This document shows positions 5,513 through 30,628 of a DNA stretch of 43,982 nt, one piece after another. The DNA is taken from UHGV virus genome UHGV-0179801, one strand, 5' to 3'. The notes under the pieces are model-generated. The model ran no database searches and was not told where the DNA came from. It saw nothing but the letters and a program-made list of their open reading frames with translations. This DNA is from a virus. Within the stretch, counting starts at the first letter, position 1, and each line of letters begins with the position of its first letter. The position numbers were made by a program, and so were the translations under genes.

Positions 5513-6556
5513 TTATTCCCCTTTCAGATAATCAGCAACACGTTTATCGAGTTCCGCCATCTGCTTAAGCGTCAGCGGATTCCCGAAACCATCTACAGAT
5601 ATTACGCGAAACTCTTCCGGTGATATACCGCTGTTACGGAAAATCTTACCGCGTGTCGGCCCGAGTGCTTCATCCTGAAACCATGCCGGTTGTTGTTTCA
5701 GGAACTCGTAATAGGTTGTGTCCGCGCTTACCTGAGTTCCTCCGTCTGCACCCTTAGCCGCACGTTTTGCGCCTTTATCGAGGAAGTCGAACTCCGAGCT
5801 AATTACCGGAGCCGTGCACGACCGGCAGTTCGGATGGGCGGGGGGCATCGGCCCTTTACCAATTTCCCACGTCATCCCGTCTCTGGCTCTGCAAATCGTA
5901 CTTGTACGGCTGTCGAGGGTGGATACCCACTCGTACTTCTCGATGATGTCGTCGTTCTGACGGTACGTCTCGTTACGTGCTTCGTTGGACACGTGGGACA
6001 GCGCGGTGCGTATTACAGTAGCCGCATTGCGCTCAGAGACATCGGCCAGGCCACCCGCGCCAACAACATTCTTAACAATCTGCCGTGTGGTTTGGCCTTG
6101 TACAAATCCCATCTTAACGCCCGTTACCAGGCGCGCGACCTCCGCTTCGCCCCAGCCATCCATCAGCTTGGTGAAATCGACAGGCTTGTCACTTAGTGAC
6201 AGAGGTTGAAACTCGGCAGCGGCCCACACCTGCTCAGCGGTAGGAGTAATAAATTCTGCGTTAACATTGGTCGTCAGTGTTTTTACGTTCCACTCAGCCT
6301 CATATGCCGCCAGTTCCTTAAGGTCTTCTGTCAGCTTTGTTTGCCAGTCACCTGTAAGGCCTGCCAGTGCTTCTTCGAGGTCGCGTAACAGTTTATTCAG
6401 TCTGGCGGTGCTGCGACCGTCGTCGCCGAATAACAGCACCTGCCGTTTTATTTCGTCACGCATCTCCTGAATGAACGGTGTGAGGTCTTTCACCTCGCCG
6501 GATGCGGTGCGTTGCAGCCATATCTGGTGGCTGATTAAGGATGTAAGTAAGCTCAT
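5513..6556 (-). CDS. head morphogenesis protein (SPP1 gp7 / Mu F-like)
   Basis: ORF 5513..6613 trimmed to ATG 6556 (AGGAGG SD); 347 aa; HPNCRSC motif typical of MuF family; downstream of portal. Confidence 0.75.
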   Translation of the reverse strand: MSLLTSLISHQIWLQRTASGEVKDLTPFIQEMRDEIKRQVLLFGDDGRSTARLNKLLRDLEEALAGLTGDWQTKLTEDLKELAAYEAEWNVKTLTTNVNAEFITPTAEQVWAAAEFQPLSLSDKPVDFTKLMDGWGEAEVARLVTGVKMGFVQGQTTRQIVKNVVGAGGLADVSERNAATVIRTALSHVSNEARNETYRQNDDIIEKYEWVSTLDSRTSTICRARDGMTWEIGKGPMPPAHPNCRSCTAPVISSEFDFLDKGAKRAAKGADGGTQVSADTTYYEFLKQQPAWFQDEALGPTRGKIFRNSGISPEEFRVISVDGFGNPLTLKQMAELDKRVADYLKGE

Positions 6557-13618: not shown

Positions 13619-14125
13619 TCAACCTTTCACCGCGCGCCCAATAGCCTCAGCCTCTTGCCACGATTTACCGTCGAACAGCGCCAGACGTCCGGCAACACGT
13701 CGGCGTAGGCCAAGCACAGGCTCAAGTTTACCGGTTTTCGGGTTACGCTGGTTGATGAACTGACTCATCTTGTGCCGTAAGGTAGGGATGTCTCCCTGCC
13801 GTAGTGCCTTACCGGTACCGGTCGTCGCCGCGATAACACCAGTTCCGGCGTTAAACACCAGGTCGACAACGGCATCAAACTGAGCCTGGGTCAGTGAGGG
13901 ATGTGCGACTTCATCAACTGCTTTCACCGCCCACTGCATATCGCGGTTCAGTAACAGCAGCCCCTGGCCCTCGGTAATCTTCTGCCCTTCATACACATCC
14001 GGCCCGGTATGACCCCAGCCTATAGTCCAGTATTTCTCGTTCTTTGTGGCTTTGTATGCAGTTCCGCGAAACTTCTCCCACGCTTTCTTGAACTGCAACC
14101 CATTATCTGAAATGTTTCGAGACAC
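13619..14125 (-). CDS. endolysin, GH24 (T4/lambda-type lysozyme)
   Basis: ORF 13619..14176; likely GTG 14125 with GGAGGA SD 7 nt upstream; WEKFRGTAYKATKNEKYWTIGWGHTG matches E..x..TIGxGH lysozyme signature. Confidence 0.8.
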   Translation of the reverse strand: MSRNISDNGLQFKKAWEKFRGTAYKATKNEKYWTIGWGHTGPDVYEGQKITEGQGLLLLNRDMQWAVKAVDEVAHPSLTQAQFDAVVDLVFNAGTGVIAATTGTGKALRQGDIPTLRHKMSQFINQRNPKTGKLEPVLGLRRRVAGRLALFDGKSWQEAEAIGRAVKG

Positions 14126-14375
14126 GCTTATGTCCTCCGTATGACAGCCACGCCTGGCGAATTTGACGCAGCGCAACTAATGTGATTAACGTCTCGGGCA
14201 ACGTCGGCGACATGCTGCCCTGTAACAGGTGGATGCATCCGGCGGCGCAGACGATAGCGGTCAGGATATAGAGCACCCGGCCAAATATCCCGTCGTCCAC
14301 ACTCGGATGATACACATTAAACAGCGATGTGCCTCCGATTGCCAGCATACCGCCGAACCAGAATAACTCATTCAT
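14103..14375 (-). CDS. second lysis-cassette membrane protein (holin/antiholin-like, 2 TM)
   Basis: ORF 14103..14555 trimmed to ATG 14375 (GAGGAGG SD); MNELFWFGGMLAIGGTSLF...ILTAIVCAAGCIHLL; overlaps both neighbours. Confidence 0.55.
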   Translation of the reverse strand: MNELFWFGGMLAIGGTSLFNVYHPSVDDGIFGRVLYILTAIVCAAGCIHLLQGSMSPTLPETLITLVALRQIRQAWLSYGGHKRVSKHFR

Positions 14376-14676
14376 CCGGGCCTCCTCGACGTGCAATGTA
14401 TTCTCCGGCGACGATGCCAGAAAGGCGGGAATAAATAGGCATCCAGAGAACGGCAATGATAAAGCCCAGGCCCGCGATTTCACGGTCGCCCGTGATGCCG
14501 AACCATTGAGCCGCGAGAGGTGCGCCAAATACGGCGCAGGTGAAGCCGGTTGCAATAAAGCAGAATCCGTCGATAGGGCCAGAAATAACGGACTTATGTT
14601 GCCTTAGTCCGATGACCCCACCGGCGAGTGCGGCAGCGAGAAGCCAGCCTGTCACTGTTTCAGTAAATTTATCCAA
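14368..14676 (-). CDS. holin (3 predicted TM)
   Basis: 102 aa; TTG 14676 with GGAGGA SD; three hydrophobic segments, charged C-terminus; upstream of endolysin. Confidence 0.65.
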   Translation of the reverse strand: MDKFTETVTGWLLAAALAGGVIGLRQHKSVISGPIDGFCFIATGFTCAVFGAPLAAQWFGITGDREIAGLGFIIAVLWMPIYSRLSGIVAGEYIARRGGPDE

Positions 14677-14735
14677 GATGAATCCTCCAGGTGCGTATTA
14701 AGTATGCAGTAACTGGAGGATACCACGGGTAGGAA

Positions 14736-15173
14736 TTATCCTAATAGTTGTTTGGTAATAATCTTGCCACCTGTGTTAGCGTCAAACTTCGATGCAACGG
14801 CTACACCGCCATGTGCTGAATACCCACATTCCATAGCCGCGAGTGCATAAGGAGAACCGGAACCAACGGCAGCAAAGCTATCAGCAATCGGAATAACCGA
14901 ACTAAGAGCACAATCCCATGATTTACAGAACTCCACCTTACACAACGTTTCGATGTCTCTAACCCACACCAAAGCAGAGAAATCAAAATCGTAGTGTTTA
15001 GGCACTAAAATACTATCGTCCTTCACTAAAAGGATACCAACTCCAGCGTCACCCGCTACACCGATAACAACAAACTCGTTCTCGTATATCTTAGTGTCAG
15101 TGTTGTATATATGACTTCCCGATACACGCGTGTCACACGCCATTGTCTTTCCGTCAAACGCGATAGTAGTCAT
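14736..15173 (-). CDS. HslV / proteasome beta-like Ntn hydrolase
   Basis: 145 aa; MTTIAFDGK... (Thr2 nucleophile position), VIGVAGDAG, AVGSGSPYALAA cf. HslV MTTIVSV / AGFAGGTAD / AIGSGGPYAQAAA; AT-rich. Confidence 0.65.
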   Translation of the reverse strand: MTTIAFDGKTMACDTRVSGSHIYNTDTKIYENEFVVIGVAGDAGVGILLVKDDSILVPKHYDFDFSALVWVRDIETLCKVEFCKSWDCALSSVIPIADSFAAVGSGSPYALAAMECGYSAHGGVAVASKFDANTGGKIITKQLLG

Positions 15174-15463
15174 TTGTGTCTCCAGATGTATTGTCGTCTC
15201 TGCGGTTTCGTCGGAATACCCTCGTATCCCAGAGATTTCCAGTAGTTAAATAGCCGATTAGCGATTGCTGCGCGTTCCTTTGTCTTGAACTCACCGAGAT
15301 TCACGGCCTTACCGTTCTGGAATCCACAGGCGCGGACAGCTTTGCGTCGGGCCTGAATCTCTGGGTACAGCGCATTACGGCGGCGCTTGTATATCCGTGT
15401 TTTAGCTCTCGGTGCCAGCGGCGCAAGGCCGCTTCGTTTCAGGATGTCAGTTGCAAGAGACAT
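15170..15463 (-). CDS. AP2-like DNA-binding protein (97 aa)
   Basis: ORF 15170..15508 trimmed to ATG 15463; GKAVNLGEFKTKERAAIANRLFNYW resembles AP2 domain of phage HNH/AP2 proteins; no nuclease motif. Confidence 0.45.
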   Translation of the reverse strand: MSLATDILKRSGLAPLAPRAKTRIYKRRRNALYPEIQARRKAVRACGFQNGKAVNLGEFKTKERAAIANRLFNYWKSLGYEGIPTKPQRRQYIWRHK

Positions 15464-28078: not shown

Positions 28079-28270
28079 ATGAAATACGAATATGACCGTA
28101 AACCAGCACGTGACATCGTACCTGGCGACATGATTTTCAATGTTAAGACCCGCCGTCCTGTTGCCGTTGATACGGTGTACGTAGAGTCGAACGGTAAACT
28201 GGTTATCGAAGATGTAACCGGTAATATTACGGCGTTTGGGCGTAAAGAGTTAGTTCTGGTGGCGAAATGA
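28079..28270 (+). CDS. hypothetical protein (63 aa)
   Basis: ORF track; AAGGA SD. Confidence 0.6.
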   Translation: MKYEYDRKPARDIVPGDMIFNVKTRRPVAVDTVYVESNGKLVIEDVTGNITAFGRKELVLVAK

Positions 28271-29211
28271 ACTATTACAATGAATGGGATAAAGGCGCTG
28301 CCGCGTGGCTGCGTGAATTAATAAAACAGGGGCACATACCTTTTGGAGTTGTAGATGAAAGAAGTATTACCGAAGTTAAGCCAGAAGACCTCGACGGATT
28401 CACCCAGTGTCATTTTTTCGCTGGTATCGGCGGCTGGCCTCTCGCGCTCAGACTTGCGGGAGTTCCGGAAGATGCGCCTCTCTGGACGGGAAGCCCGCCT
28501 TGCCAACCGTTTAGCGCGGCGGGAAAGCAACTTGGACAGTTCGACCCGAGACACCTCGCGCCAGTCTTCCTCGACCTCATCAGCGAGTGCCGCCCTCCAG
28601 TCCTCTTTGGGGAACAGGTTGCGCCAGCAATTGCAAAATCGTGGATGTGCGATTTACAAACTCATCTGGAAGGAGAAGACTACGCCGTCGGGTTTGCTGT
28701 ACTCCCAGCTTGTAGCGTCGGCGCACCGCACAAAAGAGAACGACTCTTCTTTGGTGCGCACGAATTGGCCTACACCGACAGCGAACGACTACAAGGGGAG
28801 TGGAGAGACAGTGATTCGCAAGGACGGGAAGGACAGAACATTCGACAGGCTGGACTACTCAACGGAGCAGGGGCTGAAACTGACGAGTTGGCCTACTCCT
28901 CGCAGTGCGGACGGAGAAAAGAACGTGAGAACATTAGAGGGGTCGCTATCAGAGATTCGGAGGAAGGGTGGGCCTCAGGACGTAGCGCAAGCTGCTGCAA
29001 TAACACAGCCAATCCGCATCACGGCTTCTGGTCAGACGCTGACTGGCTTGGATGCAGGGACGGAAAGTTCAGGCCAGTTGAATCCGGCACATTCCCGCTG
29101 GCTAATGGGATACCCGCCAGAGTGGGACGATTGCGCGGTTACGGCAATGCCATCGTCCCGCAAGTAGCCGCTGAATTTATAAAGGCGTTCATGGGGGCTG
29201 TAAATGAGTAA
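28267..29211 (+). CDS. DNA (cytosine-5) methyltransferase, frame A
   Basis: 314 aa; motifs I FAGIGG (28417), IV SPPCQPFS (28492), VI FGEQV (28606), VIII GAPHKRERLFF (28720), X GYGNAIVPQ (29137). Confidence 0.85.
   Translation: MNYYNEWDKGAAAWLRELIKQGHIPFGVVDERSITEVKPEDLDGFTQCHFFAGIGGWPLALRLAGVPEDAPLWTGSPPCQPFSAAGKQLGQFDPRHLAPVFLDLISECRPPVLFGEQVAPAIAKSWMCDLQTHLEGEDYAVGFAVLPACSVGAPHKRERLFFGAHELAYTDSERLQGEWRDSDSQGREGQNIRQAGLLNGAGAETDELAYSSQCGRRKERENIRGVAIRDSEEGWASGRSASCCNNTANPHHGFWSDADWLGCRDGKFRPVESGTFPLANGIPARVGRLRGYGNAIVPQVAAEFIKAFMGAVNE
28355..29167 (+). CDS. overlapping +1-frame ORF with MTase TRD/C-terminal-type motifs (frame B)
   Basis: 270 aa, ATG 28355 with GGAG 6 nt upstream; YKLIWKEKTTPSG, NWPTPTANDYKG, SWPTPRSADGEKN, QLNPAHSRWLMGYPPEWDDC; expression unproven. 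Confidence 0.45.
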   Translation: MKEVLPKLSQKTSTDSPSVIFSLVSAAGLSRSDLREFRKMRLSGREARLANRLARRESNLDSSTRDTSRQSSSTSSASAALQSSLGNRLRQQLQNRGCAIYKLIWKEKTTPSGLLYSQLVASAHRTKENDSSLVRTNWPTPTANDYKGSGETVIRKDGKDRTFDRLDYSTEQGLKLTSWPTPRSADGEKNVRTLEGSLSEIRRKGGPQDVAQAAAITQPIRITASGQTLTGLDAGTESSGQLNPAHSRWLMGYPPEWDDCAVTAMPSSRK

Positions 29212-30628
29212 GTTTCAAAGGCGCGAGTACCAAAAGCTCATGACCTCGTTCATGTTGCGGCATCATCGATGCAACATATGGGCAAGCATGGGCGCCGGGA
29301 AGACTGGCAGCGTACTGTGGGCTTTAAACCGACTGTTCCGCAACGGCCAACTTAATGACGACGACCGCGTGTTAATCCTTGCCCCGCTGCGCGTTGCATC
29401 AGGTACATGGCCGGCAGAACAAGAGAAATGGCAATTCCCATGTCTGAGCGTCGTAGATGCGACAGGTTCAGAGAAGCGCCGCATCGCGGCGCTGGAGTCT
29501 GACGCTAACGTGGTATGCACGAACCACGAAGTTATCGAGTGGCTGATTGACTACTACGGCAAGGATGACTGGCCCTTCACGGTTATCGTCGCAGACGAGA
29601 GCACGAAGCTGAAATCATTTCGTAGCCGTTCGGGTGGCAGCAAGCGGGCGAAAGCGCTCAGCAAAGTGGCGTTCGGAAAGGTTAAGCGCTTCATCAACCT
29701 GACTGGTACACCGTCGCCGAACGGCCTCAAAGATTTGTGGGGCCAAAACTGGTTTATAGACGCGGGCGAGCGTCTTGGTTCTTCATACACGGCATTCACC
29801 GACCGATGGTTTAACTCGGTACAGAAAGGTAAGTCAGCGATGGACCGTGAGTATCACGCACGCCCAGGCGCAGATAACGAGATTCATCAGAAGATGAAGG
29901 ACATTAGTCTCACGATTGACGCTGCCGAGTGGTTCGGTTGCGAAGCGCCGATTATTGTACCGGTTGAAATCGACCTGCCGAAGAAAGCGCGCCAGGCGTA
30001 CGTCGATATGGAGGAGAAGTTATTTGCGGAACTCGAGAGCGGAGAAGTTGAAGCCGCTAATGCGGCAGCGAAGACATCGAAGTGTCTCCAGATTGCATCA
30101 GGTGCCGTGTATGTATCAGGGCCCGACGGTGAAGCAACGAAAGACTGGGAGAAAGTGCACGACACGAAACTGGATGCGCTGGAGTCCATTGTCGAGGAGT
30201 TGCAGGGTGCGCCGTTGCTGGTGGCCTATCAGTTTAAGCACGAACTGGAGCGTATCCTTAAGCGATTCCCGCAGGCGCAGGCGTTTGCAAAAGGCGCTAA
30301 GGGTAATAAGCAGATGGAAGCGTGGAACCGCGGGGAAATCGAAATCTTATGCGTACACCCTGCGTCAGCCGGGCACGGCCTCAATTTACAGGACGGTGGG
30401 CACCACCTGGCGTTCATATCGCAAGGCTGGAACCTTGAGCACTATTTGCAGGTTGTTGAGCGCATAGGCCCGGTACGCCAGAAACAGGCAGGCCACGAGC
30501 GCCCGGTGTTCCTGTATCACATCGTCGCTAAAGATACGCTGGACGAGGTTGTTGCTGCGCGTACGGACGAGAAGAAATCGGTACAGGAAGAGTTGCTTAA
30601 TTACATGAAGAGACGAGGTAAGAAATGA
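29204..30628 (+). CDS. SNF2-family helicase
   Basis: 474 aa; Walker A GAGKTGS, DESTKLK (DExx), HPASAGHGLNLQ motif VI-like. Confidence 0.85.
   Translation: MSKFQRREYQKLMTSFMLRHHRCNIWASMGAGKTGSVLWALNRLFRNGQLNDDDRVLILAPLRVASGTWPAEQEKWQFPCLSVVDATGSEKRRIAALESDANVVCTNHEVIEWLIDYYGKDDWPFTVIVADESTKLKSFRSRSGGSKRAKALSKVAFGKVKRFINLTGTPSPNGLKDLWGQNWFIDAGERLGSSYTAFTDRWFNSVQKGKSAMDREYHARPGADNEIHQKMKDISLTIDAAEWFGCEAPIIVPVEIDLPKKARQAYVDMEEKLFAELESGEVEAANAAAKTSKCLQIASGAVYVSGPDGEATKDWEKVHDTKLDALESIVEELQGAPLLVAYQFKHELERILKRFPQAQAFAKGAKGNKQMEAWNRGEIEILCVHPASAGHGLNLQDGGHHLAFISQGWNLEHYLQVVERIGPVRQKQAGHERPVFLYHIVAKDTLDEVVAARTDEKKSVQEELLNYMKRRGKK

Follow-up and report, generated by a model that had tools for sequence, protein, structure and literature searches.

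What does a tailed phage gain from a single proteasome-like gene with no unfoldase beside it? The question is raised by UHGV virus genome UHGV-0179801, a stretch of 43,982 nucleotides (here called the window) that nucleotide and protein searches identified as a Kagunavirus-like Escherichia coli siphophage of the Guernseyvirinae. A sequence-only reading of the window had picked out an open reading frame (ORF) at 14736..15173 and proposed that it encodes a stand-alone hydrolase of the HslV/proteasome-beta type. These coordinates were exact; the strand, which that reading did not state, is minus, and the ORF runs from an ATG start through 145 amino acids to a TAA stop codon at 14736-14738. All the motifs it had quoted (MTTIAFDGK, TDTKIYE, VIGVAGDAG, and AVGSGSPYALAA) are present in the protein. 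We find that the protein is almost certainly an intact N-terminal nucleophile (Ntn) hydrolase of the proteasome/HslV type and a member of the PPH family, as judged by its sequence, its predicted fold, and the published feature list of the family. We also find that the gene bears the signature of a cassette acquired by horizontal transfer.

The single PPH sequence scored 19.2 bits against the Pfam Proteasome family (PF00227; E = 0.001), under the 22.4-bit gathering threshold, and it reached solved structures of BPH, proteasome beta subunits, and HslV at E values of 0.3 to 0.8 through its GSGSPYALAA motif only. PHROG 1040 (“peptidase HslV family”) was matched over residues 1 to 142 (E = 4.8e-35), and 82 of 136 relatives matched the Pfam Proteasome family at E <= 0.01 (best, 3e-11). 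When a family profile was compared with solved structures, HslV was the best match (3.4e-13), followed by human beta5 (3.9e-12) and BPH (1.5e-10). An exhaustive profile search retrieved 3,865 clusters (50% identity) at E <= 0.001 and 217 at E <= 1e-10, nearly all of them 135 to 160 amino acids long. The median length in the family was 146 amino acids, and 140 of the 150 best representatives started with Met-Thr.

The fold agrees with this assignment. An AlphaFold2 (AF2) model of PPH built on a 136-sequence alignment had a predicted local distance difference test (pLDDT) score of 95.6 and a predicted template modeling (pTM) score of 0.90. Its nearest solved structures in Foldseek were BPH (top), HslV, and beta5, with a probability of 1.00, TMq values of 0.68 to 0.75, and approximately 20% identity; because the nearest structures are so distant in sequence, PPH itself apparently has no entry in the PDB. 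The model has no helix N-terminal to residue 45 and a single six-residue helix (45-50) between the strands at 35-41 and 65-71. Helices H3 (107-115) and H4 (120-130) are retained, both highly conserved in the family alignment, and the final strand comprises residues 138 to 142 of 145. In a viral structure library, 38 phage proteins had the same fold at E <= 0.001. The top viral structural match (BFVD A0A1W6DWU9, 263 amino acids) is a close PPH of the Guernseyvirinae type that is 59% identical over 131 columns and comes from an ORF of nearly twice the length; it could be a fusion with a coupled upstream gene or have a miscalled start. Longer PPH-like proteins of 230 to 279 amino acids, in which a PPH-like domain is joined to approximately 90 to 130 extra residues, were also seen in Escherichia phage Schickermooser (Phapecoctavirus; locus L004, 2495-3187) and in BFVD entries A0A2I7R6C7, A0A5B9NBU4, and A0A6G5YGZ5 (275 to 279 amino acids).

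The identification is a rediscovery. The PPH family was described in 2021 in a purely computational study by Fuchs, Alva, and Lupas (PMC8665760), and orthologs in sister genomes of both Kagunavirus and Jerseyvirus already carry HslV-family labels; many homologs are annotated, variously, as “peptidase HslV family,” “HslV family peptidase,” “NTN-hydrolase superfamily protein,” “nucleophile aminohydrolase,” or “protease.” According to PMC8665760, PPH proteins belong to group I with HslV and BPH, have approximately 140 residues, are phage borne, and have neither a propeptide nor the C-terminal S12/H5 elements, and H2 is missing in PPH and RPC. We assigned membership by these published features of the authors’ PPH set (reference sequence, WP_042125023.1). 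The window protein shares all of them: a single domain of 145 amino acids with the proteasome-type Ntn beta-sandwich core and a group I proteasome-like sequence, retention of Thr1, Asp17, Lys33, and Gly47, loss of H2, an MT start in place of a propeptide, and no C-terminal S12/H5 or extra C-terminal domain (which sets PPH apart from RPC). Its setting also conforms, in that the hosts of the family are tailed phages and prophages; here it is a Kagunavirus-like genome, and homologs occur in 299 to 536 phage records from many lineages. No family-defining feature differs; compared with the family consensus, the Guernseyvirinae clade has short insertions of its own at residues 56-63 and 81-89 (DNA about 14907-15008). 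They include a conserved K-S-W-D-C-A-L-S-S stretch, sit where HslV has helix H2 and its pore loop, and coincide with a dip in the local pLDDT to 84. On the model, they could shape substrate access.

We then asked whether the active site is intact. Residue equivalences follow the alignment of the family profile with human beta5 and HslV, and conservation was counted in the query plus 146 representatives that are only about 30 to 40% identical to it (n = 147; all codons on the minus strand). Thr2 (ACT, 15168..15170), the predicted nucleophile after removal of Met1, corresponds to proteasome Thr1 and is Thr in 144 of 147 sequences. Asp14 (15132..15134) aligned with the AADSR motif of beta5 as the equivalent of Asp17 and is Asp in 145 of 147, and Lys28 (15090..15092), aligned with the catalytic Lys33 in both beta5 and HslV, is invariant (147/147). 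Gly38 (15060..15062), the counterpart of the oxyanion-hole Gly47 (Gly45 in HslV), is Gly in 122 sequences and Ala in 19. In Gly104-Ser105-Gly106 (14856..14864), equivalent to proteasome Gly128-Ser129-Gly130, each glycine is present in 147/147, and position 105 is Ser in 132 and Thr in another 10. Finally, Asp131 to Thr134 (D-A-N-T; 14772..14783) aligned with RDAYSGG of beta5 and provides the equivalents of Asp166 (Asp in 143/147) and Ser169 (Thr or Ser in 132/147). All canonical proteasome active-site positions are near-invariant in the PPH family. The gene is also under strong purifying selection where it is carried, with a ratio of nonsynonymous to synonymous substitution rates (dN/dS) of 0.06 at a dS of 0.60 relative to the ortholog in phage vB_VIPECOMC04.

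The sequence-only reading had named a non-Ntn fold, or a lack of conservation at Thr2, the Lys, and Gly-Ser-Gly, as results that would speak against its proposal; instead, AF2 and Foldseek gave an Ntn fold, and Thr2, Lys28, and the Gly-Ser-Gly are conserved in distant homologs. The same results bear on its suggestion that the protein poisons host HslUV. In such a scenario, PPH would be catalytically irrelevant and would shut down host proteolysis by coassembling with, or blocking, HslV or HslU. Homology to HslV and a size small enough for an interface mimic are consistent with this idea, but the near-invariance of seven catalytic and support positions across such divergent sequences, together with the low dN/dS, is expected of an enzyme and not of a decoy, and the parts that have been lost are the ring-forming and HslU-facing helices. 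The poison model is a poor fit, and we regard it as exceedingly unlikely.

Is PPH then simply a viral HslV? HslV (ClpQ), a double hexameric ring whose proteolysis is stimulated by HslU and ATP, is the proteolytic core of HslUV, an ATP-dependent protease of bacteria. The two proteins share their fold and catalytic residues, and HslV exposes its N-terminal Thr by Met removal alone, as would be expected for the MTT start here. The differences are considerable. With 145 residues, PPH is 26 to 38 residues shorter than solved HslV chains (171 to 183 amino acids), in line with the earlier estimate of about 30, and the identity is approximately 20%. HslV has four flanking helices, including apical H1 and H2, whereas PPH lacks H2 and has an H1 of only about six residues; the gap opposite H1/H2 is visible in the profile alignment. 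The NCBI HslV equivalog model (TIGR03692, NF003964) gave 12.5 bits against a cutoff of 157.75. Because of this score, the absence of H2, and the shortened H1, the PPH gene product is not an HslV ortholog. The original idea of an HslV-like Ntn hydrolase therefore held for the stand-alone proteasome-type enzyme with its Thr nucleophile, Lys, and Gly-Ser-Gly but not for the relationship, as PPH is a separate family.

The distinction matters for a possible partnership with HslU, an alternative in which PPH rings dock onto host HslU, replace or compete with HslV, and redirect ATP-dependent proteolysis to substrates chosen by the phage. Several observations are compatible with it: HslV is the best profile match among solved structures, both proteins fall into group I, the phage has no unfoldase of its own, and the phages in the collection that confidently carry PPH and have a visible host all infect Proteobacteria, which have HslUV. 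The original claim that no HslU-like ATPase is encoded was borne out when all the large ORFs of the window were considered: no Clp/HslU-type unfoldase was found, and the terminase, a primase-helicase (AAA_25), and an SNF2 helicase are the only ATPases; there is no hslU or other unfoldase gene adjacent to PPH, unlike the situation with HslV. It is through the H1/H2 face that the proteasome core meets its alpha ring and that HslV meets HslU, and the near-loss of this face argues against HslU docking. In HslUV, the C-terminal tails of HslU act on clefts and apical helices of HslV, a surface that is largely absent in PPH. The low equivalog score and the presence of PPH genes in metagenome-assembled genomes (MAGs) assigned to Bacillota, Planctomycetota, Acidobacteriota, and Bacteroidota also count against this alternative. 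Judging from the model, in which one of the two HslU-facing apical helices is missing and the other has about six residues, the hijacking of host HslU that had been suggested for this gene seems unlikely.

Two other proteasome relatives act, or appear to act, without a partner. BPH (PDB 5OVS/5OVT), the top structural match, is likewise a stand-alone group I homolog with no known unfoldase partner or function. It differs from PPH in its length (approximately 185 to 200 amino acids), in having all four helices, a long acidic pore loop, and double heptameric rings, and in being cellular and not viral. Connectase, an archaeal monomeric proteasome homolog that works as a protein ligase, resembles PPH in having lost apical helices and in acting alone on a specific target. 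PPH could by analogy be a specific transpeptidase or ligase, performing Thr1-dependent cleavage and ligation of one target, or else a small-molecule amide hydrolase. The partial loss in PPH of the H1/H2 pair, which the monomeric and highly specific connectase has lost entirely, is in keeping with this, as are the very small size of PPH and its lack of partners in all contexts. However, connectase derives its specificity from a two-helix insertion between S3 and S4, which PPH does not have; PPH keeps a short H1, where connectase has neither H1 nor H2; and its sequence places PPH with HslV and BPH and not with connectase. Retention and high conservation of the ring-ring contact helices H3 and H4 also speak against a connectase-like enzyme, and we consider this alternative improbable.

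The gene is not present in all close relatives of the phage. The best nucleotide matches to a 4-kb probe from the region were 86 to 93% identical over approximately 70 to 77% of the probe. In the Kagunavirus relatives Bas71 and K1_SXAU_B4, 91 to 94% homology to the window stops at 14746 and resumes at 15172 (blastn breakpoints). The 425 bp between them (14747..15171) are replaced by 7 nt, so that the locus has the form of a presence/absence cassette; an 11-nt remnant of the 3′ end of PPH is retained, and tblastn of PPH against the two loci found no match. Overall, the PPH protein is carried by 33 of 119 Escherichia/Kagunavirus records matching the region and by 259 of 326 Salmonella phage records. 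As the sequence-only reading had noted, the gene is AT-richer than its neighbors: its G+C content of 0.445 falls at the 10.7th percentile (window mean, 0.506), and its G+C content at third codon positions is 0.404, compared with 0.52 to 0.64 in all neighbors. Taken together, the clean insertion/deletion, patchy occurrence, low G+C content at all and at third positions, and low dN/dS are the signature of a horizontally acquired cassette that is dispensable for basic lytic growth yet useful where it is kept.

Among all records, OQ696342.1 (vB_EcoS-K1_SXAU_B4) had the highest identity to the 4-kb probe (92.6%); it was deposited unannotated and has no PPH gene. We assume that it represents vB_Eco_K1B4, the phage of the only Kagunavirus transcriptome that we found (a temporal one), although the names differ and the identity is unconfirmed. 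The transcriptome study (PMC12645636) distinguished 4 early, 42 middle, and 11 late genes and never mentions PPH; if our assumption holds, it could not have reported PPH expression, because the gene is absent from that genome.

Within the window, PPH is preceded on the minus strand by small ORFs of unknown function (18023 down to 15170). A GGAG Shine-Dalgarno sequence (15180..15183, minus) lies 6 nt 5′ of the ATG, which overlaps the TGA stop codon of the upstream gene (97 to 112 amino acids; phrog_9632) in an ATGA motif (15170..15173, minus). This overlap implies that the two genes are cotranscribed and translationally coupled. The flanking small genes had no matches in Pfam, and an AP2-like fold considered for the upstream gene was a guess that was dropped as unsupported. 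Promoter and terminator scans gave results at chance level. Downstream on the same strand come a holin (phrog_2359; 14676-14368, with a TTG start at 14674-14676), a second holin (phrog_2508; mechanical ORF at 14103-14555), and an endolysin (Phage_lysozyme; mechanical ORF at 13619-14176). The PHROG matches of the latter two begin at residue 61 and at about residue 20, respectively, and their annotated orthologs have approximately 90 and 161 amino acids. Their true starts are therefore probably internal, giving the usual tightly overlapping holin-holin-endolysin cassette. The strand continues 3′ of the endolysin with more small ORFs, the small (10501-9953) and large terminase subunits, a portal, a Mu-F-like protein, a scaffold, and the major head protein. 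PPH is thus on the lysis/morphogenesis strand, directly upstream of the lysis genes and with roughly a dozen small genes between it and the divergent intergenic region, and its description as one of the early genes was unsupported.

This position suggests another alternative, in which PPH processes or degrades a component of lysis timing (a holin, an antiholin, or a host envelope factor). The PPH-holin-holin-endolysin order is conserved in both Kagunavirus and Jerseyvirus, and 15 nt separate the PPH stop codon from a downstream hairpin that may sequester the Shine-Dalgarno sequence of the holin. On the other hand, sister phages without PPH keep a nearly identical hairpin and lysis cassette, and PPH has neither a holin nor an endolysin as its neighbor in Phapecoctavirus or in the phages of Xanthomonas and Pseudomonas. 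The protein is also cytoplasmic and has no signal peptide, since it starts with its own nucleophile. A link to lysis is accordingly very unlikely in our estimation. The hairpin itself is formed by a 9-bp inverted repeat, AUCCUCCAG(N22)CUGGAGGAU (14682-14721, minus), between the PPH stop codon and the holin start, with the holin Shine-Dalgarno sequence in its 3′ arm. The 86-nt RNA had a folding energy of -23.8 kcal/mol (z = -3.73), and none of 200 shuffled sequences folded as well. It may control translation of the holin by sequestering the ribosome-binding site.

A further alternative is a role in virion maturation, with PPH as the protease that acts on head or scaffold proteins. We did not find a canonical prohead protease; the head module is made up of the portal, Mu-F-like, scaffold, and major head proteins. 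PPH is nevertheless missing from sister phages of the same genome organization, its gene is away from the head genes, and rV5-like and jumbo myophages, which have head maturation proteases of their own, carry PPH as well. The probability of a maturation role is close to negligible.

Next, we focused on the genomic surroundings of PPH in other phages and in prokaryotes. Homologs of the protein were present in 299 phage records, mostly from Salmonella Jerseyvirus. Its neighbors differ between phages: the gene is surrounded by small hypothetical genes in Xanthomonas phage L522 and precedes the terminase in Pseudomonas phage Medea1, and in Phapecoctavirus a 230-amino-acid version is near PhoH and a lysozyme. 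None of the Jerseyvirus, Xanthomonas, Phapecoctavirus, and Pseudomonas phage neighborhoods had a Clp/HslU-type ATPase beside PPH. A scan of prokaryotes, using one genome per species and a 30-sequence subset that shares the N-terminal motif MTTIA[WF]DG, gave 46 PPH loci, several of which resemble prophage packaging regions. Across the 46 genomic loci, no conserved neighbor of PPH was found after overlapping ORFs had been excluded and tblastx applied. A seemingly conserved 179-amino-acid “partner” was rejected as an artifact of shadow ORFs that overlap PPH in high-GC DNA.

Approximately 20 of the loci (L016-L051) are from Acetobacteraceae (Roseomonas, Falsiroseomonas, Muricoccus, and Pseudoroseomonas). 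Here, the gene (approximately 137 amino acids, at about 6001-6411 of the loci) lies on large chromosomal contigs and is the sole element conserved between loci, with flanks that differ between genera. On the Muricoccus chromosome, the flanks read as ordinary cellular genes, one glycosyltransferase-like and one for a TctC/Bug-type binding protein. PMC8665760 names Pseudoalteromonas and Mesorhizobium as the only nonprophage contexts of PPH. Beyond these exceptions, the Acetobacteraceae sequences look like a solitary, apparently chromosomal PPH clade. This clade, together with the cassette polymorphism and its compositional signature, the translational coupling, and the lack of a partner in any context examined, is the modest new contribution of the present analysis.

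We think that PPH is probably a peptidase that needs no unfoldase, is directed at one particular target in the cytoplasm, and confers a conditional advantage, for example, in host takeover or counterdefense; this estimate covers the whole statement, including the identity of the protein. The suggestion in the sequence-only reading of a peptidase against a host or defense target may thus hold. Because the methionine aminopeptidase of E. coli tolerates a Thr in the second position, loss of Met1 should be enough to uncover the nucleophile, as in HslV. In the proposed mechanism, the host enzyme would remove Met1 and leave Thr2 as a free N-terminal nucleophile, making a propeptide and autoprocessing unnecessary. 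Together with Lys28 and Asp14, which complete the equivalent of the Thr1/Lys33/Asp17 triad, the oxyanion hole at Gly38, and a support network of Ser105, Asp131, and Thr134, Thr2 would then cut an amide (peptide) bond of a substrate in the cytoplasm. Action without a dedicated unfoldase is suggested by three observations: an unfoldase gene is absent from the phage, PPH has no conserved partner gene in any context, and the apical surface that would face HslU is mostly lost. Self-association may still occur through the retained, highly conserved H3 and H4, which are the ring-ring contact helices in barrel-forming homologs (PMC8665760). The combination of an accessory cassette with strong purifying selection suggests a conditional benefit and not a central part in replication, assembly, or lysis, most plausibly the cleavage of a particular host protein during host takeover or counterdefense. 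The identity and fold of the protein, its intact and conserved active site, the accessory status of the gene, and its lack of a partner come from the data; Met removal, ATPase independence, oligomerization, the class of substrate, and the biological role are all parts of the scheme that we infer.

A number of points weigh against this interpretation. We know of no established activity or function for the stand-alone relatives BPH and Anbu, and an intact active site is hence no guarantee of a protease role. The case for independence from an ATPase is built on negative findings and on what the model suggests about the HslU docking surface. HslU use remains compatible with the host distribution, as all the phages in the collection that confidently carry PPH and have a visible host infect Proteobacteria, which have HslU; when we looked for PPH in hosts without HslU, matches in Microbacterium phages appeared at E <= 1e-3 and were gone at E <= 1e-5. 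The fixed place upstream of the lysis cassette across Guernseyvirinae may be more than synteny and could point to a role in lysis. Literature searches on PPH found the 2021 computational paper alone, with no biochemical or genetic data and no later experiments. PADLOC gave no match. A 2025 mBio paper on the anti-Dnd protein JSS1_004 was set aside as irrelevant, as JSS1_004 is a T7 gp0.7-like kinase and the hslV in that work is a host gene.

A more specific and more doubtful proposal is that PPH is a minimal, unfoldase-independent viral protease of the proteasome type, spread on a mobile cassette and cleaving one specific host protein, such as a defense component or a stress response regulator. 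The same low estimate includes a variant in which the cassette encodes a connectase-like, sequence-specific ligase of biotechnological value. If cleavage of a specific host protein were true, PPH would become the first viral protein of the proteasome family with a defined function and would represent a new class of counterdefense enzymes. The family is very large, as the 3,865 clusters indicate. The natural E. coli sister phages that differ cleanly in the presence or absence of PPH offer a handle for isogenic comparison across host panels.

A side observation concerns the replication strand of the window. A C-5 cytosine DNA methylase (28267-29211, plus strand) adjoins the SNF2-family helicase (29204-30628, plus strand), and the methylase could serve the same genome as an antirestriction function.

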